NCBI GenBank assembly: GCA_002368175.1
Contig: AP018172.1
Location: 221,599-285,598, forward strand
Direction of reading: 5' to 3'
Length of the DNA stretch: 64,000 nt
Source of the DNA: Calothrix sp. NIES-2098
Lineage (GTDB): Bacteria > Cyanobacteriota > Cyanobacteriia > Cyanobacteriales > Nostocaceae
Part shown: positions 6,234 through 64,000 of the stretch, piece after piece
Position numbering within the stretch: the stretch's first letter is position 1
How the letters are laid out: each line of letters opens with the position of its first letter
The notes under the pieces: generated by a model
What the model was told of the DNA's origin: nothing
Databases searched by the model: none
The model's input: only the letters and a program-made list of their open reading frames with translations
Program-made: the position numbers and the translations under genes

Positions 6234-6248
6234 TCGCTAAATCTCAGC

Positions 6249-6599: not shown

Positions 6600-6636
6600 A
6601 GTTGCACTATCTCATAAAATGGCATATATTTTACTT

Positions 6637-6653: not shown

Positions 6654-6679
6654 AATAGAATTAAATTGGGAGGACAATT

Positions 6680-7012: not shown

Positions 7013-7063
7013 CCGCCTAGAGTGGGCTAATTATACGACTTGAGATAGGGGAGTCTTTGTTTC

Positions 7064-7167
7064 TTCAAAGTCAAGGGTCAAGGGTCAAAGGTCAATAGTC
7101 ATTGGTCATTTGTCATTGGTTATTTCTCCCTTGTCTCCCTTGCCTCCCCACACTCTCTTCTCTCCCA
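7064..7167. repeat. Dispersed intergenic repeat, copy 2 (same family as 5281-5400)
   Basis: Sequence is caaagtcaagggtcaagggtcaaaggtcaatagtcattggtcatttgtcattggttatttctcccttgtctcccttgcctccccacactc. Confidence 0.7.
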
Positions 7168-7177
7168 GGAGAATCAA

Positions 7178-33413: not shown

Positions 33414-34181
33414 ATGCGTCCGATTTTAAAGCGACTGTAGAACAGAAGTTTTACGGTTCGTGGGATTTTGCACCACTGAAATAAAGTGACGACCCCTACA
33501 ACTTGAACTCGTTCCGCTTTCACTTTTTGTTCATAACTGCAACAGACTAACACGAACCTTTGAGCTTGGGGATCAGGGTTTTAGCGTAAGTCTTGGTAAC
33601 TTTAGCAAATTTTAAATCGGTTTTCAAGCCTCAAACCTTTCTCAAATGCGGATTTCAACTGTGTAACGTTTTTTTTGGGAAGTAGGGCTTTTCTTATGAA
33701 AAATTAACATTTTCGCAGTCTTAAATTGACTCAGCCAACTGCAAATTTTTCCCTTAATATTAACACTGTTGGTAAATTTATATGCCCAATAATTATCTAT
33801 ATAAATTTAAAAAAAATAATAACTTGTTAAACTAAATCTTGCGAATATATACTGATAAAGACTCATTTTATCAAAGCTTTGTATTTCATTTTAACTATTT
33901 TGTAGCAAGAGTTACAGCTTTAGTGCCTGAAATATAAAATAAATTAGTTGAAAAGCTATAATGTAAAAAATAATACATTTATTGTATGAATCTTGCGCTT
34001 GTAAGCGTTACATAAGTTACTGATTTCAACAGTATTACTAAGGAATAAAAATTAAATTAACAATATGTAATATTTTTTACAAGTAGAGAAAATATATCAA
34101 GATTAATAGCACAAAAGTCATCAGTATATGTAGATTAATTTGCCAACTGAGAAAATAGAATCACATTTCTGCTTACAGTAA

Positions 34182-35228
34182 TTGAACGAGTATGATTTTT
34201 TAGAGCAAGCTGTAAGCCTCATGGTCACTCAAGGAGATTTAGAAACAGTTCCATTGCCTTATCTAGATGTTCTCAAGGACTTGCATTCCAGGTACAAGTC
34301 ACTTAGAGATGGTGCAGTAGCAAACTACATTCCAGAATTGGCAAAGGTAAATCCCGACTTGTTTAGCATCTGCATTGTCACTGTAGATGGTCAGATTTAT
34401 GAAGTTGGGGATTTTGAGCAACTATTTACCATTCAGTCGATTTCTAAAGTATTTGCCTACGGACTGGCACTTGAGGATCATGGAAGAGATTATGTTTTGA
34501 CCAGAGTTGGCGTAGAACCGACAGGAGATGCATTCAATGCCATTATCCTTGATGAACAATCAAATCGACCATTAAACCCAATGGTAAATGCCGGGGCGAT
34601 CGCTACCACTAGTTTAATCAAAGGTGCGGGTGCAACCGAACGCCTCAACCGGATGCTGGATATGTTTAAACGATACATCGGTCATGATGTATTCGTTGAT
34701 ATTTCTGTATTCACCTCAGAACGCAGCACGGGACATCGCAACCGTGCAATGGCGCATCTCATGCTCAACTTTGGCATGATTGACCAGAACATTGAGGAGT
34801 CCTTAGATCTATACTTTCAGCAGTGTGCGGTCATGGTCAATTGTCGTGACTTAGCAGTCATGGCGGCGACTTTAGCCAACAAAGGTATCAATCCTATTAC
34901 TCAGGAACAAGCGGTAAAGAAAAGTTACATTAAAGACATTTTGAGCGTAATGTACACTTGCGGGATGTATAACTTTGCTGGCGAATGGGCTTATAAAGTC
35001 GGTATTCCTGCGAAAAGCGGTGTTTGTGGCGGAATTATGGCTGTTGTCCCCCATCAGATGGGAATTGCTGTATTTTCGCCACCCTTGGATAAACGGGGTA
35101 ACAGCGTGCGGGGGGTTAAAGTATGCGAAGAACTTTCCCAGCAGCTTGGTTTACATCTATTTGAGTGTTCTGGGAAAGGGTCAAAGTTTGGATGTCAGGA
35201 AACTGAGGGGAATTTGAAAATTATTTAA
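34182..35228 (+). CDS. glsA: Glutaminase A
   Basis: [29 protein letters not shown]...[12 protein letters not shown]... has the serine-dependent glutaminase signature. Apparent TTG start. Confidence 0.88.
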
Positions 35229-37985: not shown

Positions 37986-38396
37986 TTACAAGCGATCGCA
38001 CTCCACAATACTCTGCAATAGTTTCTGCTCTTCAATCATGGCGCGACGGATACGATTAATCATATAGCAAGCTGTATTTCTATTTACCTCTATTTTGGAA
38101 GCTAGAGCGCGTACTGTGATTGTGTTTGGTGACTTTATCACAAGCTCAATCGCCAAAAACCACTTATGTAAATCTACATAAGTTTTATGAAAGAGAGTTC
38201 CAACTGTAACGCTATAGGAATTAAAGCATGTGTTGCAATGATACCTGCGTTCTCGCTTGATTGCTGTAGAATTAATTGACTCGCAATAGGGGCATTTTGG
38301 TGTTCCACTCCAGCGGATTTTTTCTAAGTAAGCTAGGCAATCTTCGTGAGTGCGTGTCATTTTTAAACCCAGAGTTACTGAGTTAAAAAGACGCAC
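37986..38396 (-). pseudogene. Fragment of an IS1595/ISXO2-like transposase: N-terminal zinc-ribbon/HTH only, DDE domain absent
   Basis: EDCLAYLEKIRWSGTPKCPYCESINSTAIKRERRYHCNTCFNSYSVTVGTLFHKTYVDLHKWFLAIELVIKSPNTITVRALASKIEVNRNTACYMINRIRRAM matches the N-terminal Zn-ribbon of IS1595-family transposases. Length is 136 aa against about 300 aa for a full transposase. Confidence 0.6.
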
Positions 38397-38669: not shown

Positions 38670-40091
38670 ATGACTGAAGAAAAGACATACTTAGAGCTTT
38701 CAGAAGCTAGTGGCGGCTCCCATAAATTTTATGAAGTTATCGTCAAAGATACGCAAGTGACCATACGCTATGGTCGCATTGGTGACACAGGACAAACCCA
38801 GACTAAAACTTACCCCACCCCAGACAAAGCTAAAGCAGACGCTAACAAAAAGATCAAAGAAAAACTGGCGAAAGGTTACGAACACGCCGTTATGGGCGTG
38901 CGCCAGAAGCGTCCTGTTACCCGACGTGCAGTTACGAGTACCCAATCGACAGCCCAACAAGCGCCAATTTTGTGGAAATTTAATTCTAATTCTGCCGCCT
39001 TTGGCATTTTTGTTGACAGTAATCGCTGTTGGGTGGGTAATCAAGCAGGTCAAGTTTTTGCGCTAAATCACCAAGGTCAAGTTATCAATCAGTTTAAGCT
39101 TCCCGATGGCGTTAAATGTTTAGTTGCTGATGATATTTGGATTTATGCTGGCTGCGATAACGGCAACGTCTACGACCTCACAGGCAAATTACCACGTATT
39201 GCCTATGAAATTGATGAAAATGTTGATATTTTCTGGCTGGATATCAAAAACGGTTTATTAGCAGTCTCCGATGCCAACGGTGGTGTCACCACCATCGATC
39301 ATGATGATGAGTCACAATGGACTCGTTTAAGTCAAGGTGATTCTGGCTGGATGGTACGTTGCGACGAAGTTGGTGTTTATCACGGTCATAGTCAAGGCGT
39401 GACTATGTACGATAACAAAGAAGGTCGGATGCTTTGGCATCAAAAGACTGCTGGCGGTGTACTATTTGGTTGGCAAGAAGCATCAGCTGTTTATGCGGGT
39501 GCAAGCGATCAAAAGATTTACTGCTTTAGCAAGAAGGGTGAGGCTGGCGCAGTTTACAAATGTGATGCTGCTGTCTACTCTTGCGCTACAGCCTTAGATG
39601 GAAAGTATGTTTTTGCTGGTGACAATAGTTCTTCGATTTACTGCTTCAACAAATCAGGAGAACGCCTTTGGAAACTTGGAACTGGTTGCGGTTCTGCTTT
39701 ATCTATGCAATTTTTTGAGCATCGCATTTATATTGTCACCACCGATGGTTCTCTGGCTTGTATAGATACTAGTGAAGCTGCTATCCAAGCCGCCCAAGTG
39801 GGTACAATTCCGCAAGCAGCTATTATTAAAGCACCAGCCGGAGAAGGTGCAGCACCTTCCGCAGTGGTGGAAACTACAACAGATACCAGCCAAGGAGTAA
39901 TTGTTGAGTGCTTCCGGGAAGGGAGTAAACTCAGGGTGCGGGTTGTCTCGCTAGGATATAACCCTAACTGGAAAGTACAGTTTCCTAAAGATATCCGCCA
40001 AGAAGGACAGCGTTATCTTGTCCAAGAAATACGCGAATCAGCTAGTGGAGGTTTTTACCGCGCTTATGGTGATATTAAAAAGTTAGTCTAG
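38670..40091 (+). CDS. WGR-domain protein fused to a PQQ/BamB-like beta-propeller
   Basis: N-terminal SHKFYEVIVKDTQVTIRYGRIGDTGQTQTKTYPTPDKAKADANKKIKEKLAKGYE is the WGR fold. Repeated ...G.VYA..../...IYCF... blades follow. Hypothetical function. Confidence 0.6.
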   Translation: MTEEKTYLELSEASGGSHKFYEVIVKDTQVTIRYGRIGDTGQTQTKTYPTPDKAKADANKKIKEKLAKGYEHAVMGVRQKRPVTRRAVTSTQSTAQQAPILWKFNSNSAAFGIFVDSNRCWVGNQAGQVFALNHQGQVINQFKLPDGVKCLVADDIWIYAGCDNGNVYDLTGKLPRIAYEIDENVDIFWLDIKNGLLAVSDANGGVTTIDHDDESQWTRLSQGDSGWMVRCDEVGVYHGHSQGVTMYDNKEGRMLWHQKTAGGVLFGWQEASAVYAGASDQKIYCFSKKGEAGAVYKCDAAVYSCATALDGKYVFAGDNSSSIYCFNKSGERLWKLGTGCGSALSMQFFEHRIYIVTTDGSLACIDTSEAAIQAAQVGTIPQAAIIKAPAGEGAAPSAVVETTTDTSQGVIVECFREGSKLRVRVVSLGYNPNWKVQFPKDIRQEGQRYLVQEIRESASGGFYRAYGDIKKLV

Positions 40092-40493: not shown

Positions 40494-42404
40494 CTAACGA
40501 GTATATTTAAGACTTTCCATCTTCCCTAAAAACTTATCTGTGAAGATACTTATAACAGTGCGTTTGCGAACGTTAATATTAGCACTTAAAGACATTCCAG
40601 ATTGTAGTGGTACTTCTGCACCATTAATATTCATTGATTGCTTTGTTAGCCGAATTTCTGCTGGGAAACGATAGTATTGATGGGTTTGATCGGGTGGTAA
40701 AGCATCAGAACCGACACGAATTAATTCTCCTTTAATATCGCTAAATTCAGTGTAAGGAAAAGAATCAAGTCTGACATCAACAGGCATTCCCGCTTTGACA
40801 AAGCCAATATCATTATTGGTGATGAAAACTTGTGCAACTAAATTTTCTGGAGGCACAATTTTGAGAATAGATTCGCTGCTGTTATAAACGTATCCCGGAC
40901 TACGAGGCTTTAAATCAAAAACAATACCATCATTTGCAGCTCGCAGTTCTTGGTATTTCATATTTAACTGGAGTTCGCTGATTTGACTGTTAATTTCTTG
41001 GATTTTTTTATTGTTTTCGACAATAACTTTGGTAAGTTGACTATCTATTTCAGTGATGCGCTTTTCGTTATCGGCGATTTTGCTAAGTAATTCTTCTTTA
41101 GAAAGGGCGATCGCATTTTGTAATTTCTTTTGTCCTTGGGCGATCGCTAATCTTAAACGTTCTTCTTCTTGCACCAAGCGGTTTACCTCAGCTTGGCTAG
41201 CATCTGCTGCTTGTCTTCGTTCTAGATAAGGTAAGCGCGCAAATGCTCCCTTTTGCACGAGAGTTTCTAAGTTATTGGCAATCTCTAAATTTGTCTTCAG
41301 ACTACTTCTAGCGTTAATCAGTTGGACTTGCACCTGATTTAGCTGCCGAGTTAACTGTTCTCTATCCAACCTGACTGACTCAATGCGAGACTCTCTTTCT
41401 AATTGCCTAGTTAGTAAGCGTTGGCGAAATCTTGGATTTAAGTCGCGTATTCCCTGCCCTTCGTTTAATTCTGCCTGAAACAGTTGATTTTCCTGCACCA
41501 ATGCTGCACGATTTTCTGTTAGCGCTGCTAATTCGGGTAAATTCTGTAACTGCTTGGGACTAGAATTAGCTGTGAGCGATCGCATCTGCGTTTTGTAAAA
41601 CTCATTTTCTGCCATTAAGCTGGCGCGAACTGCTTGCAAAGAAGCTAATTTCGCCTGACTGGTGGTGCGATCGAAGCTAACTAACAAATCGCCTTTTTTG
41701 ACTCTTTGCCCTTCCTGCACGTGAATTTGGGCAATTACCCCGCCAACTGGTGCTTGAACTTCTTTCACAAAACCTTTCGGTTCGAGTTTACCTTGCACGG
41801 CAACAGATTCGTCAATCTTGGCATTACAAGCCCAGATGACTGCAAAAGTTGTGACTCCAACTATGCTCCAGACAATAGCATGAGACCAAGCACGAGATTG
41901 TTTGAGGATGACAGGCTGATCGAATTCCTCTTTCTCCTCAGGTAAAGTCAGTCCGGAACCACCGAAAACACCTACATCTCCTTGTAGAAGCAGTTGCCAT
42001 TGACGCTGGGCTTGTGGGAACCGCTTCCAGATTAAAAATATTCCTCCAACGGCAAACAAGAATAAAAATCCGCCCGTAGGTAGAAGCATTTCCAGATGAA
42101 AAGGGCGATATTCAACAGCATCAACATAATTTTTCTGATAATCGCTCTTTTGTTGTAAAAACGGTTGATTTTGGGATTGGGCTTGCGCCACCGTTGAGTC
42201 GATTTTACGCTCGCTTCGCGAATCTTCACGAGCGATAGGTGATGAAAGTGCTAACTCCATGCTTTCTGGTTGACTAACACAAGCACTTGGATCGGATGTT
42301 ACTGGAGTTTTATCATCAGCACGAATTTCTTGGCAAGAATTAGCAGGTGTTTGAGAGATTTTGGAACATTGTGTGCAAGCTAGCAGCAAAGATAAATCTG
42401 GCAT
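40494..42404 (-). CDS. HlyD-family membrane fusion protein of a type I secretion system, with a long N-terminal extension
   Basis: TM anchor (FLFLFAVGGIFLIW), long coiled coils, and the C-terminal beta-barrel/lipoyl region (VQGKLEPKGFVKEVQAPVGGVIAQIHVQEGQRVKKGDLLVSFD ... VRLDSFPYTEFSDIKGELIRVGSDA). N-terminal 120 aa are Ser/Gln-rich. The true start is uncertain. Confidence 0.8.
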   Translation of the reverse strand: MPDLSLLLACTQCSKISQTPANSCQEIRADDKTPVTSDPSACVSQPESMELALSSPIAREDSRSERKIDSTVAQAQSQNQPFLQQKSDYQKNYVDAVEYRPFHLEMLLPTGGFLFLFAVGGIFLIWKRFPQAQRQWQLLLQGDVGVFGGSGLTLPEEKEEFDQPVILKQSRAWSHAIVWSIVGVTTFAVIWACNAKIDESVAVQGKLEPKGFVKEVQAPVGGVIAQIHVQEGQRVKKGDLLVSFDRTTSQAKLASLQAVRASLMAENEFYKTQMRSLTANSSPKQLQNLPELAALTENRAALVQENQLFQAELNEGQGIRDLNPRFRQRLLTRQLERESRIESVRLDREQLTRQLNQVQVQLINARSSLKTNLEIANNLETLVQKGAFARLPYLERRQAADASQAEVNRLVQEEERLRLAIAQGQKKLQNAIALSKEELLSKIADNEKRITEIDSQLTKVIVENNKKIQEINSQISELQLNMKYQELRAANDGIVFDLKPRSPGYVYNSSESILKIVPPENLVAQVFITNNDIGFVKAGMPVDVRLDSFPYTEFSDIKGELIRVGSDALPPDQTHQYYRFPAEIRLTKQSMNINGAEVPLQSGMSLSANINVRKRTVISIFTDKFLGKMESLKYTR

Positions 42405-42506
42405 AGTTCTACTGGGTCGTTGTCCTTTGTCAGTTGTCAGTTGTCAGCCATTTATTTGTCCTTTGTCCTTCGTCAGTTGTCCTCCGCGTCTCTGCGTCTC
42501 AGTTAT

Positions 42507-45428
42507 TCATAACTGTGATTCCTGTTGTTGAAACAGACAGTAATAGCGTCCTTTCATTGCCATGAGTTCGGCGTGGGTTCCTTGCTCGGCAATTACACCC
42601 CGATCCATAATGATGATGGTGTCGGCATTTCTAACAGTGTTGAGTCGGTGGGTAATAAATAAAACAGTACGACCTTGAAAAAACTCCATCAGATTGCGAC
42701 AGACTTGTTGTTCTAATTCGTAATCTAAAGCACTAGTAGCTTCATCAAGAATCAGTAATCTAGGATTTTGCAAAACGGTACGAGCGATCGCAATGCGTTG
42801 GCGTTGTCCTCCAGAAAGGGCAGAACCTCGTTCCCCAACAATGGTGTTGTAGCCGTTGGGTAAGGCCATGATGAAATCGTGCGCTGCTGCAACTTTGGCG
42901 GCGGCGATGATTTCCTCGGTAGTGGCATCCGGACGAATTAAAGCAATATTATCTTGAATTGTCCCTTCAAATAAAAGGGTATCTTGTAACACTATCCCAA
43001 TTTGGCGGCGTAAGGAGTTTAACTCTACTTTCCTTATATCATAACCATCTATTTGGATGTGTCCGGCTACAGGTTCGTACAGACGCGGTAATAATTTTGT
43101 CAAAGTGCTTTTACCAGAGCCGCTTTGACCGACAATACCAACAAAAGTTCCTGGGGCAATTTCTAAATTGATATTGATCAGTTTTAAACTATCTTCTGGG
43201 TTAAATCCAAAGGAAACTCCATTGTATTTAATTGCACCTGCAATTTCTGGTAGTGCAATATTGTTGCGATCGCTTGGCTGAACTTCTGGTGCTGTATCTA
43301 AAATGTCACTAAGGCGTTCGATAGACAATGCTACTTCTTGGAAATTCTGTGATAGTTGAATTAACCGCAGCAAGGGACTAGTAACATAACCAGCAATGAT
43401 CCGAAAGGCAATCAATTGTCCTAAAGTGAGTTGATTGGAGATGACTAAATGCGCGCCTACCCACAACAACACAAAACTCGAAAATTGATTTAAAAATCCA
43501 CTGATAGAATTAGCAGTACTGGAAGTTAGGACATTTTTAAAGCCAGCACTGATGTAACGAGTATAGCGATCGCGCCATTGCCAACGAGATTTTAATTCAA
43601 TATTCTGTGCCTTGACTGTTTGAATGCCAGTGAGAATCTCCACTAAATAGGATTGAGTATCGGCGTGGCGTTCGGCTTTTGTGCGTAACTGTCTCTGCAC
43701 AATCGGCACCACAAAGGTTGTCAAGATGGCAAACAATGGCACAGTAGCTAAGGCAACGAGGGTGAGCATCCAGCTGTAAAACAGCATAATGCCGATATAA
43801 ATCACAGAGAACACAGCATCTAGTACCACTGTCAATGCTGTTCCTGTGAGAAAAGAACGAATATTTTCTAGTTCGTTAATTCGTCCTGCTAATTCTCCGA
43901 CGCGACGACGTTCAAAATAACTCAGAGGTAATTTGAGTAAATGCTCAATAACTTCTGAACCCAAACGGATATCAATACGGTTGGTAGTGTCGGCAAATAG
44001 ATAAATCCGCAGGCTCGTTAAAGCCGCCTCAAACACTCCAATTACCAACAAGAAAATGCCCAAAATATCGAGGGTATCCAGACTTTTCTGAATTAATACA
44101 GTGTCGATGATGATTTGGGTAACGATCGGATTTGCCAAACCAAATATCTGCACAAAAAAGGAAGCCACCAGGACTTCAACCAACACCAGACGATATTTAT
44201 AGATGGAAGGTAGGAACCAACGCAGACTAAATTTTTCGGGGCGATCGCCTTCTGCCTTTTCCACCGTCAATACTTGTCCAGACTCTCCCCAAATTTGGGC
44301 AAATTCCGCAGGAGAATATTGGCATACTCCTGTTTCAGGAGCCGCAACAACCAATTCCCGTTCGGTAATTTTGTATAGCAAAGCAAGATTGTCTCGCCAA
44401 TAAATCAAGGCTGGCGCAGTCAACCGATTAATTACATGAGCCGGAACTGTAACTAACTGGGCTTGCAAACCCATCATTTCGATAACTGCACCAGCCACTG
44501 GTAAGGAAATCTGCTTGTGCGTTTTTAGTTGATTGGTTAAGACTTTGCGAATTAAATCGCGGCGGAAAGAACCCCCCAATATCTGATTCAACATCTGGAA
44601 ACAGGCTAAAGGAGCATCAATAACTCCGTTTCCCGATACAAATATCGTTTGTGCTGGTGCTAGATTTTCGACAATGGGGTCTGGGGGATATTCTGGAGCC
44701 GGAGTAATAGTTAAACTAGCACCATATTCATTAGGAGACTGCCAGGGAATACCAATTAATCGGACTGCGGCTGTATTTTCCCAAATCTCTTGAGAGCCAT
44801 CCAACGCTAATCTATAGCCAACAGTCATACCCTCTATACTGCCAGCACTAACTAGCCACAAATGCCGTTTGTTAAACTGCTGGGAATTAACTGGCCCCGG
44901 AACTAAATTTACTACCTGCGTTTGTTGCCAAACTTCACGTGCTAAATCTTTAATATCGGTGGTTGCATCTGCATGACGCTGAATTTCCAGACTTAAGAGT
45001 TCAAAAACTTCGCTAATGTGGGGACGCGATCGCACTGCTTCGGCAAACTCTGGTTCTGTATCCATCAATTGTAGAAATTCTGCGGCTTCTAGAGTTATCG
45101 CGATCGCATCTGTGGAGGCCATAACAGCCTCGCAACTGAATCCCCGCAACAATCCCAACCAACCAAGAAACTCTCCTTCTTCTACTACAGCCAAACTAAT
45201 TTGTGAGTTTGTCCATTGGTCGTAACCTAATACCCGCGCCTGTCCTTGATAAATCACCATGACTTGTGCTGGCATTCTTTCTTTAACCAACATCCATTGT
45301 CCGGTGCGATATTGCAATAGTTGGCAGTTAAAGGCGATGTTTTTTAAGGTATTAAATGGCAGTGTATTAAACGGGGGAGTGTCAATAAGGAAGGCTAAAA
45401 TTTCGGTCTGGGTGATAGCTGGCTTCAT
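42507..45428 (-). CDS. T1SS ABC exporter with an N-terminal cyclic-nucleotide-binding domain and a degenerate C39-like peptidase domain
   Basis: The cNMP-binding-like region is FNCQLLQYRTGQWMLVKERMPAQVMVIYQGQARVL...EEGEFLGWLGLL. The C39-like region DAPLACFQMLNQILG has Ala where the catalytic Cys is expected. Six TM helices follow. NBD has Walker A GQSGSGKST, signature LSGGQRQRIAIAR and Walker B LLILDEATSALD. Confidence 0.85.
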   Translation of the reverse strand: MKPAITQTEILAFLIDTPPFNTLPFNTLKNIAFNCQLLQYRTGQWMLVKERMPAQVMVIYQGQARVLGYDQWTNSQISLAVVEEGEFLGWLGLLRGFSCEAVMASTDAIAITLEAAEFLQLMDTEPEFAEAVRSRPHISEVFELLSLEIQRHADATTDIKDLAREVWQQTQVVNLVPGPVNSQQFNKRHLWLVSAGSIEGMTVGYRLALDGSQEIWENTAAVRLIGIPWQSPNEYGASLTITPAPEYPPDPIVENLAPAQTIFVSGNGVIDAPLACFQMLNQILGGSFRRDLIRKVLTNQLKTHKQISLPVAGAVIEMMGLQAQLVTVPAHVINRLTAPALIYWRDNLALLYKITERELVVAAPETGVCQYSPAEFAQIWGESGQVLTVEKAEGDRPEKFSLRWFLPSIYKYRLVLVEVLVASFFVQIFGLANPIVTQIIIDTVLIQKSLDTLDILGIFLLVIGVFEAALTSLRIYLFADTTNRIDIRLGSEVIEHLLKLPLSYFERRRVGELAGRINELENIRSFLTGTALTVVLDAVFSVIYIGIMLFYSWMLTLVALATVPLFAILTTFVVPIVQRQLRTKAERHADTQSYLVEILTGIQTVKAQNIELKSRWQWRDRYTRYISAGFKNVLTSSTANSISGFLNQFSSFVLLWVGAHLVISNQLTLGQLIAFRIIAGYVTSPLLRLIQLSQNFQEVALSIERLSDILDTAPEVQPSDRNNIALPEIAGAIKYNGVSFGFNPEDSLKLININLEIAPGTFVGIVGQSGSGKSTLTKLLPRLYEPVAGHIQIDGYDIRKVELNSLRRQIGIVLQDTLLFEGTIQDNIALIRPDATTEEIIAAAKVAAAHDFIMALPNGYNTIVGERGSALSGGQRQRIAIARTVLQNPRLLILDEATSALDYELEQQVCRNLMEFFQGRTVLFITHRLNTVRNADTIIIMDRGVIAEQGTHAELMAMKGRYYCLFQQQESQL

Positions 45429-46177
45429 GCCAAGAGATACTCCACACAATGGTTAGCAGATGGTAAATGAGTTTGAATTTGTGTTTGTATCCAAGCTTCA
45501 AAAAGTTCGTCTAGCAAGTACTGCTGCATATTTTCATCTAACTGAGCAGGTAGTAATTGCTCTAAGCGAATAATTACATACCAATCGGCTATTAAATGCG
45601 GTTTCCAGATTTGACCTGGTTGACTGACATATAGAATTTGCTGAATTATCGGATGTGGTTGAGATAGAGGAACAGGCCCAATTACCCCACCTGTCTGTGC
45701 TTCGCCACCTTGGGAATATTGCTGCGCTATGGTTGCAAAAGGATGTTCTCCCTCTACAATCCGAAAATATAGCTCTTGGGCTAACCCTTCATCTTGGGTA
45801 CGAATCATGGAATATATTACCCGGTCTAAATCTGCTTTGCGGTGCAGAAAGTAAGACTCTAGTTTATTGCCCCAGATTGCAAGCTGAAATTTTCGGATTA
45901 ATAGAGGACGGATGGCTATTTCCTGCATAGTTTCTTGAGTTAGCTGATTCTTTTGCAACCATGCTTGTTCTAACTCTGGTGAAGTCAGTTGGTGACGTTC
46001 GCGAAACTTGGCGATCGCTGTTTGATGTTCTGCTTCCGTGCATGAAAAAGATGCGATCGCCTCTTCGATCGCTTTAGCACGTAATACCTGTGGTAACAAC
46101 TGATAACGATTTAGCAAAGACAGTAATTTTTCTGCCTGAAGAATTTCGTTACCCACTTGTAATGTTTGTGTCGTCAT
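45425..46177 (-). CDS. Cytoplasmic parvulin-like (PpiC-type) peptidyl-prolyl isomerase domain protein, co-transcribed with the T1SS ABC
   Basis: RVIYSMIRTQDEGLAQELYFRIVEGEHPFATIAQQYSQGGEAQTGGVIGPVPLSQ...GQIWKPHLIADWYVIIRLEQ has the rotamase motif. No signal peptide. Its stop overlaps the ABC start (ATGA). Confidence 0.65.
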   Translation of the reverse strand: MTTQTLQVGNEILQAEKLLSLLNRYQLLPQVLRAKAIEEAIASFSCTEAEHQTAIAKFRERHQLTSPELEQAWLQKNQLTQETMQEIAIRPLLIRKFQLAIWGNKLESYFLHRKADLDRVIYSMIRTQDEGLAQELYFRIVEGEHPFATIAQQYSQGGEAQTGGVIGPVPLSQPHPIIQQILYVSQPGQIWKPHLIADWYVIIRLEQLLPAQLDENMQQYLLDELFEAWIQTQIQTHLPSANHCVEYLLA

Positions 46178-46961
46178 AATTCCTGACTAGCACGTTTGGC
46201 ATTCTAAGATTTGGGCAGAAATCTGTACATCTCACGCCGTGAGAGTGTTGAAAGAGACTAGGGAATAAAAAGCCTATCTCTATTTTCTGTTCAGGCATTT
46301 TCTAGCGTATCCGGATTTTTTTCAATAAGCCTTTGTAAAATTTTTTCGCCTCAATTTTTGCCAACTTCGCGAAAACTTTACATTATATCCGGTTTTTAGA
46401 GTAATTTGTTACTAGTTAATATTGATAATACTGATTTTTGTATAAAATTTTAGTATTATTTTACACTTTAAAAAATTAAATCATTAGTTCTGTTTTGCAT
46501 ATAAATAGAGACTTTTATTAGTATAAAGAGGCAATATATACAGAAAATTAGAATTTATAATTTTGGTATAAATTGTATTTTGGCTGCTATGTGACGGTTT
46601 ATCGACCGCCACAAGGCAAGGGTGAAAAAAGCTACTGAATCTTTTATCCTGAGGGGAAGCGATTGATGTATTACTACTTACATCGTTTTCCTTTTAATCT
46701 ACGGGGTCGTCATTCAACTGCCAGAAGCTCAGGCAGATAAAAACCCCTAAATCTGGAAGTCGCATCATCAGGAGAAATATTTCTCTCATACGTAACTTTG
46801 ATGTATCGAACATAAGACTTCACAGTACTTATAAGCTTGTGACAGCTTTACTCTAACTACTCTTTATTTACCCCTCTCCAGGTTTGCTTCTACCAATAAG
46901 TTGCAGCAGAATTTTTCTTGCTGCTGAGTTCATGTGAAGAAATCTTTAAGAGGACGGATCG

Positions 46962-48395
46962 ATGGCAACAACTACTACCCCGACATTTGAACAACAGGTT
47001 CTAGATTTAACCAATCAACAACGAATTAAGAATGGTCTTCAACCACTGCAAGCAAATGCAGAACTCAATTATGCTGCTGACAGCTATGCAGAATTTATGG
47101 CGCAGAACAACTATTTTAGCCATACAGGAAAAGATGGTTCTACTCCCAGAACTAGAGTTAATGCCGTGGGCTTTGATGCTCAAATAGTTGGAGAGAACAT
47201 CGCTTTTGGTCAACAAACACCAAAAGATGTTGTGGATGCTTGGATGAAAAGCCCAGGACATAGAGCTAATATCCTCAATGCCAAATATACTCAAATTGGT
47301 ATAGGTTTTGATAACAAGAATCCGAATAATAGACCGTATTGGGTTCAAGACTTTGGCAGCAATGATACCAACCCAGCGACTAAGATTCCCACTTCAGGTT
47401 CGCAACCAACCCCAACACCAACCCCAACCCCAACCCCAACACCAACCCCAACCCCAACCCCAACCCCAACACCAACCCCAACGCCTACTGGCACATTTGA
47501 ACAGCAAGTTCTGCAACTCACTAATCAAAAACGCGCCGAGAAGGGACTTGCGCCACTCAAAGCTAATGCAGAACTCAATTATGCTGCTGACCGATATGCA
47601 GAATTTATGGCGCAGAACAGCTATTTTAGTCATACAGGGAAAGATGGTTCTACTCCCAGAACTAGAGCTAACGCCGTGGGCTTTGATGCTCAAATAATTG
47701 GAGAGAACATCGCTTTTGGTCAAAAAACACCAAAAGATGTTGTGGATGCTTGGATGAATAGTCCAGGACATAGAGCTAATATCCTCAATGCCAAATTTAC
47801 TCAAATTGGTATAGGTTTTGATAACAAGAATCCGAATAATAGACCATATTGGGTTCAAGACTTTGGCAGCAATGATACCGACCCCACGACCAAGATACCA
47901 ACCGGTGTAAAGGGTTCAGTTTCTGAACTTCCACCTTCAACTACTCCTATCCCTGGTAAAGAACTCAAAGGTAGGAATGGCAATGATATCCTCACTGGCG
48001 GCGCAGGTGATGACACATTGTGGGGTGGTAGAGGTAAAGATACCCTGAATGGAGGCGATGGTAACGATCGCTTGATTGGTGGGTTAGGCAAAGATAAGTT
48101 AACTGGTGGTGGTAACAGCGATACCTTCGTTTATGAAAAACTCCAAGATAGAGGAGATACCATCACTGATTTTGCCGTTAATCAAGATAAAATCGACCTG
48201 CAAAAGATTTTGGCAGGCCCTTCTTACACTGGCACAAATAAATTCGCTGATTACCTAAAGTTTGAACAACTTGGTAGCGATACTGTTGTTCGTCTTGATG
48301 TCGACGGAAAAGCAAAAGCTGGTGGCTTTGAGAAGTTTGTGCTGTTGGAAAATGTCAAGGCCTCTAGCCTAACCGCTAACAACTTTGTTGTCTAA
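46962..48395 (+). CDS. Secreted T1SS substrate: two tandem CAP (SCP/PR-1-like) domains, a PT linker, RTX calcium-binding repeats and a C-terminal secretion signal
   Basis: No N-terminal signal peptide. CAP domain 1 (about 46983-47400) and CAP domain 2 (about 47490-47904) are about 90% identical (HTGKDGSTPRTR...SPGHRANILN...YWVQDFG). Linker is (PT)n. Five nonapeptide repeats: LTGGAGDDT LWGGRGKDT LNGGDGNDR LIGGLGKDK LTGGGNSDT. AAGAGGA RBS upstream. Confidence 0.8.
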   Translation: MATTTTPTFEQQVLDLTNQQRIKNGLQPLQANAELNYAADSYAEFMAQNNYFSHTGKDGSTPRTRVNAVGFDAQIVGENIAFGQQTPKDVVDAWMKSPGHRANILNAKYTQIGIGFDNKNPNNRPYWVQDFGSNDTNPATKIPTSGSQPTPTPTPTPTPTPTPTPTPTPTPTPTPTGTFEQQVLQLTNQKRAEKGLAPLKANAELNYAADRYAEFMAQNSYFSHTGKDGSTPRTRANAVGFDAQIIGENIAFGQKTPKDVVDAWMNSPGHRANILNAKFTQIGIGFDNKNPNNRPYWVQDFGSNDTDPTTKIPTGVKGSVSELPPSTTPIPGKELKGRNGNDILTGGAGDDTLWGGRGKDTLNGGDGNDRLIGGLGKDKLTGGGNSDTFVYEKLQDRGDTITDFAVNQDKIDLQKILAGPSYTGTNKFADYLKFEQLGSDTVVRLDVDGKAKAGGFEKFVLLENVKASSLTANNFVV

Positions 48396-48458: not shown

Positions 48459-50036
48459 TTATTGAGCAGTACTGGCAATCTGATTCCAAGCTTGCACAAC
48501 TTGCTGTAAGTTTTTCGGCAATTTATTTTGCGAAATATCGTTATATCTCACCGTACCCTCTTTGCTAGTCAGAGTGTAGGTAATATAATCAGCCGAGCCT
48601 TGTGGTGCTGGGTAACTCAAATTTTTGAATTCACCAAATCGCGATCGCTCTACTAACCTCTCAAATTGTTGCACTTGTTGGCGGGAAATCCGGCGAACAC
48701 TCCGTTCCGAATCATTAGCATCGCCAACTCGCACCCGAATCAAAGTGCCATCATTAAGTAAAACAGTTTCATAGGTTCTGCCAATAAAGCCACCACTAGA
48801 AATCTGCCGAAATACCACATTTCTATCTAAAGGTAATGGCATTTCATTTGCGGGAATGGGTACTGCACCAGTGGTATTTCTATCAGAAACTTGGTTACTA
48901 CGCAGTCGGTTCCAAGCTTTGACTACAGTTCGCAAATTGCTTGGTAGTTGAGCTTGAGAAATATTGTTGTACTTAACTGTACCTTCTGGGCTGGTGAGAG
49001 TGTAGGTAATGTAATCAGCTGCTCCCCTAGGTGCTGGGTAATTTAAATTCTTAAATTGTGCAAATCTGGTGCTGGCTAACAATTGTTGAAATTGTTGGAC
49101 TTGTTGGGGAGAAACTTGCCAAACTCTTCTTTCCGAATCGTTAGCATCGCCAACTTTAACTCGAATCAAGCTGCCATCATTGAGTAGAACAGTTTCATAA
49201 GTAGTCCCAGCCAAGCCACCACTAGATATTTGCCGAAACACCACATTTCGATCTAAAGATGGCGGTAATTCATTACTAGGAATTGGAACTGGTCTAAGAT
49301 TGCTAGGGTTACGATTAGGTCTGTCACTATTAGCAAGCTGGATTTGAGAACCACTTTCATCACTGAGAAAAACCCAAGGACTAATCCTATTAGTCGCTCT
49401 CACAAATACTTCCCAACCCTGTACTAATATTTGGTCGCAAGCATTGGGTAAAGTGGAACTTTCGCAACCTCTGGCGAATTTTTTCTGTTTAAATGCAACG
49501 ATATTTAGGGTGCTAATTGGTAATCCTGAAACTTGGGAAGCTTGACGTAAAACTCCATCCCTAACGTTTTGAGGCAATGTCTGACTATTAGTTTGGTTAG
49601 CTCTTTCATTTAATCTGATTGCGGAACCTGTTTGATCGGTGTGATAAACCAAGGTTTGTCCAACTGCACCCACAACTATTCGCCAACCTGGTACTATTGC
49701 TCTCAGACAACTTTCATTAGCATTACCTAATTCTAAACAGCCATCTGCCCAATTTTGTTGTTGAGCTTGAATAATATTTAGCCGAGAAATTGGCTGCTGC
49801 AAACGTGTAGACGCAGCTTGTAAAACCCGATTTCTCAAAGATTGTGGTAATTGGTTTTGTTTAAAATTTTGTTTCAGAACTTCGTTTGTTGTCTCTGGCG
49901 AAGGCCTAAGAGAAGCAGCACTACTGCTTTTGATTAATGTTAACCCACTACCAACAGATAAAATGCCAGTTAAAACTAAGGCAGTGAAAATCCGTCCTTG
50001 ATTGCTGGTAGAATAATTACCCAAAGAGCCTTTCAT
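48459..50036 (-). CDS. Secreted hypothetical protein built from two pairs of tandem repeat domains
   Basis: Signal peptide MKGSLGNYSTSNQGRIFTALVLTGILSVGSGLTLIKSSSAAS. Repeat A occurs twice, about 100 aa each (..LPQ.(L/V)R..VL..AS.....PIS.LNI......(W/F)A.GC......C...V.GW...V.A......). Repeat B occurs twice, about 115 aa each (DRNVVFRQISSGG..G.TYETVLLNDG.LIRV.VGDANDSER.V...S.QQVQQF..L......F.EFKNL.YPAP.G.ADYITYTLTS.EGTV.YN.ISQ..LP.NL..VV.AWN). Confidence 0.6.
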   Translation of the reverse strand: MKGSLGNYSTSNQGRIFTALVLTGILSVGSGLTLIKSSSAASLRPSPETTNEVLKQNFKQNQLPQSLRNRVLQAASTRLQQPISRLNIIQAQQQNWADGCLELGNANESCLRAIVPGWRIVVGAVGQTLVYHTDQTGSAIRLNERANQTNSQTLPQNVRDGVLRQASQVSGLPISTLNIVAFKQKKFARGCESSTLPNACDQILVQGWEVFVRATNRISPWVFLSDESGSQIQLANSDRPNRNPSNLRPVPIPSNELPPSLDRNVVFRQISSGGLAGTTYETVLLNDGSLIRVKVGDANDSERRVWQVSPQQVQQFQQLLASTRFAQFKNLNYPAPRGAADYITYTLTSPEGTVKYNNISQAQLPSNLRTVVKAWNRLRSNQVSDRNTTGAVPIPANEMPLPLDRNVVFRQISSGGFIGRTYETVLLNDGTLIRVRVGDANDSERSVRRISRQQVQQFERLVERSRFGEFKNLSYPAPQGSADYITYTLTSKEGTVRYNDISQNKLPKNLQQVVQAWNQIASTAQ

Positions 50037-50927: not shown

Positions 50928-51552
50928 TATAGAGTCCTGCCTTTGGTCTTTAAAAGTACCTTAGCCTTTTCAGTTTAATTCGTTCATCAACTCGTTATCC
51001 AAAGTATTTTTGGGTAAAATTTGATAACACTTTATTTGATGACCTACAGTAATCTTACGCATGATTTAATAATTGAGGATGCAGTGTTTGACCCCGCATT
51101 TCCGAGAATATAGATAGTAGGCAGTGTAATCCAAATAACAAACAAGTGAAATTTACAAATTTGTTGAGTTGCGTGTACCTAATATTTAGGTTTAGAAGAT
51201 TAGCTGCTGATTATTAAGTGATGGGAAGTTTGGGAATAAGGAAAGGCTATATTCCTAAATTAACATTATCAACGTAAATTAATAACAAAAATCGGTATAA
51301 ATGTTTAGCCAGCAGGCGATAATGCAACTTCTGTCTGGCTATATCAGTCAAGATTCATATTTAACGATGCTTGTAACAAATGATGAAAAAGCTAGTCGGT
51401 CTTTCGGGTCAGCGAGGGGTCACACCCTTTGCTAATTTGCTAACAGCATCACTGATGGAGATGATTAATTTTGAGTTTTGAATTCGGAGCGAAGTGACGT
51501 GACTTTTTTGAGATGGAATTTTTACCAGAGCAGAAAGCGGGCATTCTTTGCA

Positions 51553-52725
51553 ATGATGGTTGCCTTGAGCTTGATAGCTACTGTGATGTTTTCATTACCT
51601 TTAAACGCACAAAATCCACCTTTGCGATCGCCTGTATCGGAATTAAGAGGTGTATGGTTAACAAATATTGATAGCGATATGCTATTTGAGCAGAATCGTC
51701 TTAAACAATCTTTACAACGATTGAGCGAACTTAACTTTAATACTGTATATCCCACAGTTTGGAATTGGGGCTATACTCTGTATCCTAGCAAAGTTGCAGC
51801 CAAAGAAATTGGGCGATCGCTCGACCCCACACCCGGACTGCAAGGACGAGATATGCTCAAAGAAGTTGTCGACGAAGGGCATAAAAAAGGTTTAACAGTT
51901 ATTCCTTGGTTTGAATTTGGCTTTATGGCTCCTGCTGATTCCCAATTAGCTAAACGTCATCCCCAATGGCTAACTAATCGTAGTAACGGTACGCGAATTG
52001 TCAAAGAAGGTACACATGACCGAGTGTGGCTGAGTCCCTTTCGCCCAGATGTCCAAAAATTTATCCAAGATTTAATAGTTGAAATTGTTAAAAACTATAA
52101 TATCGACGGTATTCAATTTGATGACCATTTTGGTTTACCCTCAGAATTAGGCTACGATCCTTACACAGTAGCGCTCTATAGAAAAGAACATGGCGGTCGT
52201 GCACCTTCTGCTAACTTTAAAGATCCAGAGTGGGTGGCTTGGAGAGCAAATAAAATTACTGACTACATGAAGCGGGTATTTACAGCTATCAAAGCTGTGA
52301 AAAAAGACTGTATTGTATCCGTTGCACCTAATCCTCAACGTTTTTCCTACGATTTCTTTTTAGCAGATTGGCAAAAATGGGAACGTATGGGACTGGTAGA
52401 AGACTTAGTTTTGCAGATCTATCGCGATGACCTGAGCGTTTTTCTCAGCGAATTAGAGTACCCAGAAGTGAAAGCCGCAAAGAGCCATATTCCTGTAAGT
52501 ATTGGCATTTTATCCGGGCTAAAAGGCAAATCTATACCCATGCAACAAATTCAAACACAAGTGCAAAAAGTACGCGATCGCAATTTTGCCGGAGTAGCGT
52601 TCTTTTTCTACGAAACTCTATGGAACCTTAGCAAAGAAAAACCCTTAGACCGTCAAACCAGCTTTCAGCAAATCTTCCCCATACGCACCGCGTATCCAAA
52701 TTTATTAACAGGCTGGAAACCTTAG
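51553..52725 (+). CDS. GHL10 (DUF187/YddW-like) glycoside-hydrolase-like family protein, secreted
   Basis: Signal peptide MMVALSLIATVMFSLPLNAQ, then LRGVWLTNIDSDMLFEQNRLKQSLQRLSELNFNTVYPTVWNWGYTLYPS...GIQFDDHFG. It is a paralogue of the catalytic region of the 15839..18025 gene. An alternative TTG start lies at 51478. Confidence 0.7.
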   Translation: MMVALSLIATVMFSLPLNAQNPPLRSPVSELRGVWLTNIDSDMLFEQNRLKQSLQRLSELNFNTVYPTVWNWGYTLYPSKVAAKEIGRSLDPTPGLQGRDMLKEVVDEGHKKGLTVIPWFEFGFMAPADSQLAKRHPQWLTNRSNGTRIVKEGTHDRVWLSPFRPDVQKFIQDLIVEIVKNYNIDGIQFDDHFGLPSELGYDPYTVALYRKEHGGRAPSANFKDPEWVAWRANKITDYMKRVFTAIKAVKKDCIVSVAPNPQRFSYDFFLADWQKWERMGLVEDLVLQIYRDDLSVFLSELEYPEVKAAKSHIPVSIGILSGLKGKSIPMQQIQTQVQKVRDRNFAGVAFFFYETLWNLSKEKPLDRQTSFQQIFPIRTAYPNLLTGWKP

Positions 52726-61790: not shown

Positions 61791-63827
61791 TTACCCTTCA
61801 AGCGTTCGCGAATATACTGGTTTACCTTGAGAATCGTAGACAAACAAAGATAGTTGAGCATTATCACTAATTACTCCCAGCGCTTGCTGTAACATTTGTA
61901 GGTGTTGATTACCATCAGCAATTACATTTGATTTTGGAGGATTAGCATTAGCTGAAGTACTTTGTCGTGCTAGGTCATATTCACGAGTTAACTGCACAGT
62001 AATTCCGCGATTATCTATAGTAAAAGTACAAATCCGCATTCCATTAGTACAAAGTTTATTGAGATCGGTGCGGGTTTGCTGCAAACTATTGACAGTTTCT
62101 AATTTTGCTTGTGCTTGTTTCAGGGCAGCAGAGTAGGGTTCGATTAGAGGTTGAGTCAAACGATATTGAAAGCTATCTTCAGAAATTTGTTTAGCAGACT
62201 GCACAGCTTGTTCCCATTGAAGTACAGCTGGTTGCCATTGTTGCTTTTGCTCGTAAGCCTTAGCTTGCTTGGCAGCGTTAATAGCTTGTTGGTAAGTTTT
62301 AAAAGCTAATTGTTCTTTTGTAGCGCGATCGCGTGCTGCTGCTAATTTTGGTTTATATTCTCCTAATAGAGCTTGTGCTTCTTGGTATGCTGAACTGGTA
62401 CGGGGAATAATATTCAATGCATTAACCGCTACCTGCCAAGTAGCCTGCAACTTTTGTAAATCACGCAAGGATTTTATATTGGCTTCTTGCTGGCTAGCTG
62501 CATTAGCTACAGCTTTAGAAGCATTCAGTTTTTTTAACCATTTTTCTGCCCCTAGCAATTGCTGGTTCACAGCGTTTAACTCAGCACGATAGCCAAGTAA
62601 TCTTACTTGAGCCAAATTGTATAATTCGCTATTAGTACCAATAGCTTCTAATGGTGTAATCGCTTGTCGCCAAAGTTTTTGTCTAGCTTGTAATTCCTCT
62701 AGGCTGTTGCTAGGGGTTTTACCTTTACTCATCGCCAAGGATGCTGCTTGTAAAGCTTTTACCACTCGATCGATTTTTTCTGATGACCCAGATAAACTTG
62801 CTTTTAGTTCCTCGGCTTTTTGGTATTGAGGAGACCAAGAAGGAATCTGTTCTAAGTCTAAGCTAGACGCTTCTAATTGCTGTTGCACTGTTACTAATTC
62901 TTTTTCAGATTTAGCCTTGCGCATCAATTGTCTAGATTCCGTTTTTAATTGCTCGGCAGTTTGGATTGCTTTACACTCTGAGAGGACACAAGGAGTAGCC
63001 AAAAGGTAAGCTCCGCCAGCTAACACGACAATTCCGACACAAGCTGCACCAATCAACATTGCTTTGATTGGTTTTGCTGGTTTAGTAGTTAATAAATCTG
63101 GTGAGCCAGCAAAGGGATCGAACGGTTCTTCATGCTCAGTTTCATCAGATGAAGCAGCTGATTTAGAAGATGCGAAGGGTGACTCAGCTTCATCCATAAA
63201 AGAAGTAGCTGATTTAGAAGATGCGAATGGTGACTCAGCCTCATCCATGAACGAAGTAGCTGATTTAGAAGATGCGAATGGTGATTCAGCCTCATCGATT
63301 GATACTTCTGAGAAAGGACGCGCGAATGGCGAATCAAGCTCATTGCTTGATGGAGTTGCTGGGATGCTTTGTGCAAATGCTGACTCAGCCTCGTTGCTTG
63401 ATGCTGCTGAGGTAGGGAGAGAGAAGGGAGGAAAAATTAATTTTTTACCAGAGGATTTATCGGTAGATTCTTCTAAGTCAGGCGCTTGTAAAGTCGGGTA
63501 GAGATTAATTTCATCGATTTCTACCCTCTGACTAATATAGAGGGAACGTTTGGTATAAGGACGTTTTTCACCCAATACTCTTAGAAAGCATTCTACAGTT
63601 TGCTCTCCTTGAGTTGACAGCGACCGGATTGTGTCTTCAATTACTTGAAAGACTATTTGTGTGTCAACTGTTAAACCTACTGGATGTTGAATTAGTACCA
63701 TTAGTCCGTCATTATTGACGGCACACTTCACTTGGAAGACTCCGCCAGATGGAACTTCGGCCAGGAATATTTCCTGCAAAGTTTTGGTTAACAGCTGTAA
63801 GTCTTCCTGCTGAACTGCTACTGTCAT
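61791..63827 (-). CDS. Hypothetical membrane protein: cytoplasmic N-domain, Ser/Ala/Glu-rich tandem 17-aa repeats, one TM, and a large extracytoplasmic coiled-coil/helical domain
   Basis: MTVAVQQEDLQLLTKTLQEIF.... FMDEAESPFASSKSATS occurs three times. TM is AMLIGAACVGIVVLAGGAYLLA. About 400 aa of Ala/Gln/Lys-rich helical repeats follow. Start assumed at 63827; the ORF track extends to 63914. Confidence 0.5.
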   Translation of the reverse strand: MTVAVQQEDLQLLTKTLQEIFLAEVPSGGVFQVKCAVNNDGLMVLIQHPVGLTVDTQIVFQVIEDTIRSLSTQGEQTVECFLRVLGEKRPYTKRSLYISQRVEIDEINLYPTLQAPDLEESTDKSSGKKLIFPPFSLPTSAASSNEAESAFAQSIPATPSSNELDSPFARPFSEVSIDEAESPFASSKSATSFMDEAESPFASSKSATSFMDEAESPFASSKSAASSDETEHEEPFDPFAGSPDLLTTKPAKPIKAMLIGAACVGIVVLAGGAYLLATPCVLSECKAIQTAEQLKTESRQLMRKAKSEKELVTVQQQLEASSLDLEQIPSWSPQYQKAEELKASLSGSSEKIDRVVKALQAASLAMSKGKTPSNSLEELQARQKLWRQAITPLEAIGTNSELYNLAQVRLLGYRAELNAVNQQLLGAEKWLKKLNASKAVANAASQQEANIKSLRDLQKLQATWQVAVNALNIIPRTSSAYQEAQALLGEYKPKLAAARDRATKEQLAFKTYQQAINAAKQAKAYEQKQQWQPAVLQWEQAVQSAKQISEDSFQYRLTQPLIEPYSAALKQAQAKLETVNSLQQTRTDLNKLCTNGMRICTFTIDNRGITVQLTREYDLARQSTSANANPPKSNVIADGNQHLQMLQQALGVISDNAQLSLFVYDSQGKPVYSRTLEG

Positions 63828-64000
63828 AGAGCGTTCCCGCTGTTCTTCTATATTGTTTTTCTTATCTTCGAGACTGGGAAAGGTAGGACTTTCGTTTGTT
63901 GAATGCAGATGCACAGTTTAACCAACCAGAGCCAGATAATCAGATTGACCAACTTTCTAACACAAATTCTGAGTTTTCACCAAAAATCAAAAAAGCAGAG

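Follow-up and report, generated by a model that had tools for sequence, protein, structure and literature searches.

Sll1180 and Sll1181 of the cyanobacterium Synechocystis, analogues of HlyB and HlyD, reportedly export the RTX S-layer protein Sll1951, and HlyB of Escherichia coli is said to keep the catalytic histidine in its C39-like domain (CLD). In this study, we analysed a stretch of 64,000 nt from Calothrix sp. NIES-2098 (contig AP018172.1, positions 221,599–285,598; hereafter the window, to which all other coordinates refer). Here, an operon for a parvulin-like protein, an ABC transporter and an HlyD-family membrane fusion protein (MFP) faces a gene for a protein with two CAP domains and RTX repeats (hereafter the cargo). 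The "group I bacteriocin gene cluster" consists of a rotamase named "SurA", a long ABC transporter (CAP_ED plus C39) and HlyD (Wang et al. 2011, PMC3140520; Micallef et al. 2015, PMC4558948). It has been reported from nearly all cyanobacterial genomes (PMC3140520, PMC4558948), with an average of 0.35 precursor genes per cluster (PMC3140520), and sll1180/sll1181 are not mentioned in the supplements of Wang et al. (PMC3140520). HetC of Nostoc PCC 7120 keeps the catalytic Cys and His, is an active protease, has no adjoining MFP and binds ppGpp through its cNMP domain (PMC10986499). CLD-type transporters, as summarized in PMC10986499 with reference to Lecher 2012, tether unfolded RTX substrates. 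As for the cargo, YP_165496 ("PaxA") of Ruegeria pomeroyi is a dominant exoprotein whose secretion was shown experimentally (PMC2953401).

Our results make it likely that the operon is the Calothrix copy of a pan-cyanobacterial type I secretion system (T1SS) inner-membrane module, and that the divergent CAP-CAP-RTX gene encodes a lineage-specific neighbouring substrate, probably one of several.

Exporter operon and divergent cargo gene

The coordinates and strands given for the four genes in the initial annotation of the locus were borne out by a check of the open reading frames (ORFs). The locus is laid out as follows:

40494–42404, minus strand: HlyD-family MFP, 636 aa
42405–42506: ABC–HlyD spacer, 102 bp
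42507–45428, minus strand: HlyB-type T1SS ABC transporter, 973 aa counted from ATG
45425–46177, minus strand: PrsA/SurA-fold parvulin-like protein, 250 aa
46178–46961: divergent control region, 784 bp
46962–48395, plus strand: CAP-CAP-RTX protein, putative T1SS substrate, 477 aa

The stop codon of the parvulin-like gene and the start codon of the ABC gene share the sequence ATGA. The longest ABC ORF (980 aa) begins at TTG, position 45449, and the 973-aa start with its 4-nt overlap is the one also chosen by gene callers in two relatives. The ABC and HlyD genes do not overlap, with 102 bp between them. Of the translational coupling formerly attributed to all three genes, the classic signature is therefore present at just one of the two operon junctions (parvulin-like/ABC).

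The ABC transporter scored 737.8 bits on TIGR01846 (type_I_sec_HlyB, cut-off 725.55) and failed both NHLM_micro_ABC1 (441 bits, cut-off 853) and bacteriocin_ABC (394 bits, cut-off 524). Its best match in the PDB is E. coli HlyB (7sgr, 588 bits); the bacteriocin exporter PCAT1 reached 358 bits. Pfam identified ABC_membrane (184 bits) and ABC_tran (116 bits). Because the transporter passes TIGR01846 and HlyB is the closest among solved structures, we assign the ABC/HlyD pair to type I secretion. The protein is organized as a cyclic nucleotide-binding (CNB) domain, a CNB-like domain, a linker, a CLD, a transmembrane domain (TMD) and a nucleotide-binding domain (NBD), and its N-terminal modules are located as follows:

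44745–45410, minus strand: tandem CNB-like modules, residues ~7–133 and 138–228
44256–44627, minus strand: CLD, residues ~268–391, Pfam Peptidase_C39 29.7 bits

In a profile alignment, the catalytic residues Cys21, His99 and Asp115 of PCAT1 face Ala272, Asn347 and Ala363 of the Calothrix transporter. Among 74 ABC orthologs, the Cys position is occupied by A, G, S, T, V or I and never by Cys (0/74), the His position is His in one, and the Asp position is Asp in two. The domain is therefore a CLD rather than a bacteriocin-processing peptidase, since the triad is replaced and Cys is missing in all 74 orthologs. A regular-expression motif scan (not a profile search) of the small ORFs between 36 and 52 kb of the window yielded no candidates with a double-glycine (GG) leader.

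The N-terminal part of the transporter matched cNMP_binding (PF00027) with 27.3 bits over residues 46–131 of the 980-aa ORF, and PF00027 is annotated in homologs of this region. An AlphaFold model of the N-terminus (predicted local distance difference test (pLDDT) score 80) was built from an alignment of 17 partial homologs. In Foldseek, its ~230 residues matched PKA-R and PKG best, along their tandem CNB domains (~250 columns), and a single CNB domain superposed with a root-mean-square deviation of 2.3 Å (TMt 0.85). Residues 231–259, directly before the CLD, were modelled as a disordered linker. By eye, the family consensus reads ...GEILGW.GL.RGVPCETAIAS where PKA-type cassettes read ...PRAAT, and the phosphate-binding arginine is not evident.

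The HlyD protein matched HlyD_3 (76.7 bits), Biotin_lipoyl_2 and HlyD_D23 in Pfam. Hydropathy indicates a cytoplasmic N-terminal stretch of ~105 aa followed by one transmembrane helix at residues 107–125.

The CAP-CAP-RTX protein

The following segments were delineated in the cargo, all on the plus strand:

46986–47354: CAP/SCP domain 1, residues ~9–131, best stretch of TIGR02909
47406–47486: (TP)13 linker, residues 150–175
47511–47864: CAP/SCP domain 2, residues ~184–301, best stretch of Pfam CAP
47970–48131: RTX block, six in-register nonapeptides, residues 337–390
48156–48392: C-terminal type I secretion target domain, residues ~399–477, ending in ...LTANNFVV

Both profile matches anticipated for 46962–48395 were found. 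The protein matched Pfam CAP (PF00188) in two stretches (181.9 bits, E 8.1e-54) and HemolysinCabind (PF00353; 47.4 bits, cut-off 23), together with Peptidase_M10_C. In NCBIfam, it scored 234.6 bits on the YkwD profile TIGR02909 (cut-off 171) and 47.4 bits on TIGR03661 (T1SS_VCA0849, T1SS C-terminal target domain; cut-off 17.6). A putative T1SS substrate thus lies beside a T1SS ABC/MFP pair, as had been proposed, given the TIGR01846 and TIGR03661 matches and HlyB as the best structural match of the transporter.

The protein had been described as lacking an N-terminal signal peptide, and this holds. The maximum Kyte–Doolittle value in the first 50 residues (12-residue window) is ~0, no in-frame start was found upstream of the ATG, the MA..TFEQQV start is common to its orthologs, and a GAGG sequence resembling a ribosome-binding site lies ~10 nt 5' of the ATG. 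The RTX array was likewise recognized correctly, but its count of five GGxGxD repeats must be changed to six nonapeptides, four of which are strict GGxGxD, the first and last being degenerate (GRNGND and GGGNSD). Of the reported acidic and hydrophobic tail, only the hydrophobic character stands: the very end is hydrophobic, and the last 60 residues contain 7 D+E and 7 K+R. The protein contains no Cys and has an isoelectric point (pI) of 5.9. No GGxGxD motif was found elsewhere in the 64-kb window in any of the six frames, making the cargo its sole GGxGxD-bearing ORF. Judged by its sequence, the cargo carries the hallmarks of a T1SS substrate. Look-ups of the exact cargo protein in public assemblies and of a second CAP-RTX paralog of Tolypothrix yielded no record.

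CAP domains 1 and 2 are a tandem duplicate with 87% identity in protein and 87–89% in DNA (pairwise alignment), seen as a direct repeat of 46969–47268 and 47479–47778 at 87% within the gene. The (TP)13 linker between them is encoded by an array of the CCAACC hexamer (Tandem Repeats Finder (TRF), 47406–47482, period 6, 12.8 copies). The number of CAP copies at this position varies between one, two and three among species, with linkers that are usually (T/S/K-P)n (loci L001, L003–L014 and L024–L026). Because copy number varies at one genomic position, the passenger domain appears to have been recurrently tandem-duplicated or lost. The nearest solved CAP structures are 4ifa (a Bacillus anthracis SCP protein), BB0689 and GAPR-1, the first two being bacterial, and the FSH, GEN and GHR motifs of the cargo CAP domain line up with 4ifa. 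By analogy with other CAP proteins, the most likely task of the CAP domains would be to bind a ligand or metal, either on the cell surface or in the surrounding medium. PF00188 and PF00353 are combined in 45 of the 120 best homolog clusters of the cargo.

The parvulin-like protein

The 250-aa protein encoded by the first gene of the operon matched Pfam Rotamase with 36.2 bits (cut-off 21.7) and, weakly, TIGR04500 (PpiC_rel_mature, "peptide maturation system protein"; 46 bits, cut-off 180). Its model (pLDDT 89.1) shows a helical chaperone module with an inserted parvulin domain. The top Foldseek matches were PrsA (6vj4, 6vj6 and 4wo7) and SurA with E values of ~1e-8, and superposition of the parvulin domain with Pin1 and PrsA gave 1.6–2.4 Å. 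The protein is 100% identical to one on record for Calothrix sp. NIES-2098. No hydrophobic or transmembrane segment or signal peptide was found in the protein (maximum Kyte–Doolittle value over 19 residues, 0.95). At the positions of the parvulin histidines (Pin1 His59 and His157), none of 17 diverse family members has His in either of two alignment registers. Weak alignments (E 1e-4 to 0.03) make the register approximate, and the aligned positions sit in an invariant YS[LM]IRT motif and in [ED]Wx[VI]I. The earlier designation as a PPIase is therefore retained for the fold (Rotamase match and PrsA/SurA-like model), but the canonical catalytic histidines are missing. From the sequence and model, we infer a cytoplasmic chaperone-like partner, not a proven isomerase.

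Distribution and genomic context

Relatives of the 250-aa protein are present in at least 588 cyanobacterial species-representative genomes. The context was counted in the 80 best species loci of these relatives. The ABC gene adjoins the parvulin-like gene in 78 loci, and HlyD lies downstream of the ABC gene in 74. A CAP protein is encoded on the opposite strand within 10 kb upstream of the operon in 21 loci, and all 21 of these proteins have RTX repeats or the cargo-type C-terminal domain. The CAP gene is directly adjacent and divergent in 15 loci and ~5 kb away in six loci of the Fischerella group. The directly divergent CAP-RTX neighbour belongs to a Calothrix/Tolypothrix/Nostoc/Aulosira clade of Nostocales.

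The Fischerella loci encode, in addition to the CAP protein, a second passenger of 628–692 aa without a Pfam domain or signal peptide, which ends like the cargo (...DTITDF..NQD.IDLRQI..FSDYL..VG.DT.VRLD.DG..GGFE..). This passenger (loci L016–L023, at about 5100–7200 on the minus strand of each locus) is a second candidate substrate. Unrelated RTX proteins are encoded directly upstream of the operon on the same strand in Gloeobacterales, Brasilonema and an uncultured lineage. In a metagenome-assembled genome of Gloeobacterales (locus L027, 9272–15125), a 206-aa RTX protein, the parvulin-like protein, the ABC transporter and HlyD form a tight same-strand operon with overlapping junctions. The HlyD protein of this locus has 482 aa and is without the N-terminal extension of ~150 aa of the Nostocales proteins.

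Divergent control region and flanking genes

The 784-bp region between the operon and the cargo gene was expected to be a shared, AT-rich control region. Its length and AT-rich core were reproduced (core GC content 0.285–0.31, against ~0.40–0.47 in the flanking genes), but it is not AT-rich throughout: in an alignment of 10 species, each end has long invariant blocks, between which lies the variable, AT-rich core. These blocks are conserved at near-coding levels in the 10 species, most of all in the ~400 nt beside the cargo ATG. Between the blocks, two insertions of roughly 90–140 nt are present in Nostoc carneum and Tolypothrix tenuis.

NtcA binds the consensus GTAN8TAC. The control region contains one perfect palindrome of this type:

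46667–46682: TGTA-N8-TACA palindrome (NtcA-type consensus), ~280 nt 5' of the cargo ATG

The palindrome is invariant across the 10 aligned species. The window holds six TGTA-N8-TACA sites, against 1.02 expected by shuffling, and three of them (33901–33916, 33962–33977 and 34066–34081) lie just upstream of a glutaminase gene (34182–35228). By eye, no canonical –10 box was seen at the expected spacing from the palindrome in either direction; we therefore treat binding by NtcA, and regulation by nitrogen status, only as a lead suggested by the motif. Scans for sigma-70 promoters and intrinsic terminators gave counts at or below the shuffled expectation and were uninformative. A search of the control region against Rfam returned nothing relevant at E<=1, and no small coding ORFs or GG-leader peptides were found in the region and its flanks. 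An RNA-level role of the ~400 nt beside the cargo gene, as a riboswitch or structured leader, was considered and rejected: the RNAalifold covariation term was +1.64, and compensatory changes occurred in 6 of 53 pairs among very similar sequences.

The ABC–HlyD spacer contains tandem heptamer repeats, GTTGTCA and TTTGTCC on the plus strand (42419–42483; period 7 and 14 in TRF), similar to the STRR (short tandemly repeated repetitive) sequences found in heterocystous cyanobacteria.

Downstream of HlyD lie a gene for a WGR-domain plus beta-propeller protein (38670–40091, plus strand) and a 136-aa fragment of an IS1595-type zinc-ribbon transposase (37986–38396, minus strand). Syntenic relatives have Na+/H+ exchanger or glycosyltransferase genes on this side, and since the flank differs, the conserved block stops at HlyD. 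On the other side, a gene convergent with the cargo gene and 63 bp away from it (48459–50036, minus strand) encodes a protein of 525 aa. Its N-terminus looks like a signal peptide, and it has two Emfourin/DUF6438-like repeats. Emfourin is a family of metalloprotease inhibitors. Most of the nearest relatives have the gene in the syntenic place (loci L001–L006 and L009–L014); it was not detected at loci L007 and L008, in Fischerella or in Calothrix NIES-4105. Two GHL10 glycosyl-hydrolase-like proteins, one of them with SLH cell-wall anchoring domains, are encoded at 15839–18025 (minus strand) and 51478–52725 (plus strand). A 707-aa ORF at 61791–63914 (minus strand), suspected to be the C39-ABC transporter seen near the syntenic L002 locus, matched no Pfam family at E<=1e-4 and was discarded.

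Discussion

The assignment of the operon to a widespread T1SS inner-membrane module with the cargo as a neighbouring substrate faces several contrary observations. The HlyD protein scored 201.3 bits on TIGR01843 (type_I_hlyD), just below the cut-off of 208.65. The profiles proposed for checking the locus were matched in the case of CAP, HemolysinCabind, HlyD_3 and ABC_membrane, but cNMP_binding was borderline, 0.2 bits below its cut-off of 27.5. The cargo, with its pI of 5.9, is less acidic than a typical T1SS substrate. A Pfam scan of the window's large ORFs turned up no TolC-like outer-membrane component, which may be encoded elsewhere in the genome. In most Microcoleus loci, no RTX gene lies within 10 kb and the upstream gene encodes a multi-glycosyltransferase, and no T1SS genes occur within 8 kb of the CAP-RTX genes of Halotia branconii and a Paracoccus. 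Therefore, linkage between exporter and cargo is not a general rule. Finally, adjacency to CAP-RTX genes is confined to related Nostocales and could be inherited synteny; these genomes also keep the Emfourin, GHL10 and M50 genes nearby.

How closely the exporter and cargo belong together can be judged from these and the preceding data. The initial annotation pictured a self-contained, dedicated module whose purpose is the export of this single CAP-RTX effector, as would suit a divergent adjacency kept over the conserved 784-bp region in ~15 related genomes and a cargo that is the sole RTX ORF of the window. This we consider unlikely. At least 588 species genomes contain the operon, its RTX neighbours vary or are missing, and just 21 of the 80 loci have a CAP neighbour, so the exporter can hardly be called dedicated; nor is the module self-contained within the window, in which the Pfam scan of large ORFs revealed no TolC. 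Moreover, the Fischerella loci hold two different passengers with one type of tail, and in Halotia and Paracoccus the CAP-RTX genes stand without a T1SS nearby. A T1SS and a neighbouring substrate are thus supported, but dedication and self-containment are not, because the neighbours vary and TolC was not found in the window. The description of the cargo as unusual was also not upheld, as CAP and RTX are combined in 45 of its 120 best homolog clusters and an SCP-linker-RTX protein dominates the R. pomeroyi exoproteome (PMC2953401). At the opposite extreme, the CAP-RTX protein might be exported by another T1SS encoded elsewhere; the operon would then serve other substrates, such as S-layer or further RTX proteins, and shared regulation or chance would account for the proximity. 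Genes for T1SS substrates often lie apart from those of the exporter (PMC2953401; Halotia and Paracoccus loci), and some RTX–exporter adjacency will arise by chance because cyanobacteria encode up to 35 RTX proteins per genome (PMC3034196). Such a separation is nevertheless rather improbable in our judgement: the adjacency recurs with different passengers sharing one C-terminal domain, RTX neighbours recur in independent lineages, and the divergent region has conserved blocks common to the operon and the cargo gene.

Gene order and domain composition also fit the "group I bacteriocin gene cluster" (PMC3140520, PMC4558948), and the 250-aa protein weakly matches TIGR04500 (46 bits). Taken literally, this label would have the operon cleave and export peptides with GG leaders and would make the CAP-RTX gene an unrelated neighbour. 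Cleavage of leaders by the CLD is implausible because none of the catalytic residues (Cys, His, Asp) is present, and the scores of the transporter favour the HlyB-type TIGR01846 (737.8) over NHLM_micro_ABC1 (441) and bacteriocin_ABC (394). In addition, the motif scan found no GG-leader ORFs within ~8 kb of the operon, group I clusters have just 0.35 precursors each (PMC3140520), and the recurrent neighbours are RTX genes. We therefore hold a peptide-bacteriocin function to be very improbable.

If the operon is indeed a T1SS inner-membrane module with the cargo among its substrates, export may proceed along the lines of the HlyA/HlyB/HlyD/TolC paradigm. Made without a signal peptide, the cargo would remain unfolded in the cytoplasm, where Ca2+ is low. 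The CLD would hold the RTX and C-terminal region of the cargo, possibly aided by the parvulin-like protein acting as a holdase and not as an isomerase. The cargo would then be threaded, C-terminus first, through ABC–HlyD and an unlinked TolC-like channel. Outside the cell, Ca2+ would fold the beta-roll. Folding of the CAP domains, which are free of cysteine and sit on extended (TP)n spacers, would presumably come afterwards. The CNB-like modules could gate export on a nucleotide ligand, as has been proposed for HetC and ppGpp.

A broader idea, which we put forward tentatively and regard as possible rather than probable, is that the "group I bacteriocin cluster" has been misfiled and is the main RTX T1SS of cyanobacteria. 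It would have a dedicated cytoplasmic, His-less parvulin holdase of PrsA/SurA fold translationally coupled to the ABC transporter and a tandem CNB sensor that gates export (e.g., by ppGpp), both being accessories undescribed for characterized T1SSs. If this is true, the CAP-RTX locus would be a handy natural substrate–exporter pair for studying both accessories.

The locus is fairly ordinary, because the exporter occurs across cyanobacteria and cargo of this kind is already known. In itself it adds little, as secretion of a protein with the architecture of the cargo is already documented in another phylum. The interest of the locus lies with the exporter. The data suggest that the commonest class of cyanobacterial "bacteriocin" clusters is without the peptidase chemistry of its name and tracks RTX proteins, and this reading of group I clusters affects the counts of bacteriocin potential in natural-product surveys. 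The operon also points to the likely export route of the abundant cyanobacterial RTX proteins. Substrate holding and the possible regulation of export could be approached through its conserved cytoplasmic PrsA-like partner and its tandem CNB modules.

Comparison with described systems

The Calothrix operon resembles the group I bacteriocin cluster in gene set, gene order and domain composition, and the reported breadth of that cluster fits the occurrence in at least 588 species; the match is one of gene content, not sequence identity. The group I label implies a working C39 peptidase and precursors with GG leaders, whereas here the triad is gone family-wide and RTX genes are the recurrent neighbours. 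HetC is likewise cyanobacterial and has a cNMP-binding domain, a C39-type domain, a TMD and an NBD (PMC10986499). In contrast to HetC, the Calothrix transporter is of the degenerate CLD type and has an adjoining HlyD.

The 250-aa protein shares with PrsA and SurA the two-module fold of a helical chaperone domain and an inserted parvulin domain. However, PrsA is a lipoprotein and SurA is periplasmic, while the Calothrix protein has no signal peptide, lipobox or transmembrane segment and no parvulin histidines. The cargo is likened to PaxA of the alphaproteobacterium R. pomeroyi by architecture, not by sequence. Both have an N-terminal SCP/CAP region, a proline-rich linker (PEPEPK x18 in PaxA, TP x13 in the cargo) and a serralysin-type RTX C-terminus, and neither has a signal peptide; PaxA has one SCP domain and no T1SS genes nearby.

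Compared with HlyB, the Calothrix transporter has an additional N-terminal extension of ~260 aa with two CNB-like folds, and its CLD is without His and Asp as well as Cys. In contrast to the E. coli hemolysin locus, a parvulin-like gene is fused on upstream, there is no acyltransferase gene, and the substrate gene is divergent instead of lying upstream in the operon. Sll1180/Sll1181 of Synechocystis, likened here by description only, would represent the same kind of system, a cyanobacterial exporter of the HlyB/HlyD type for an RTX protein. The core of the E. coli HlyB/HlyD/TolC system recurs in the Calothrix locus: a half-size ABC transporter with an N-terminal non-catalytic CLD and an adjoining HlyD, next to a putative substrate that combines RTX nonapeptides with a C-terminal signal of the uncleaved type.

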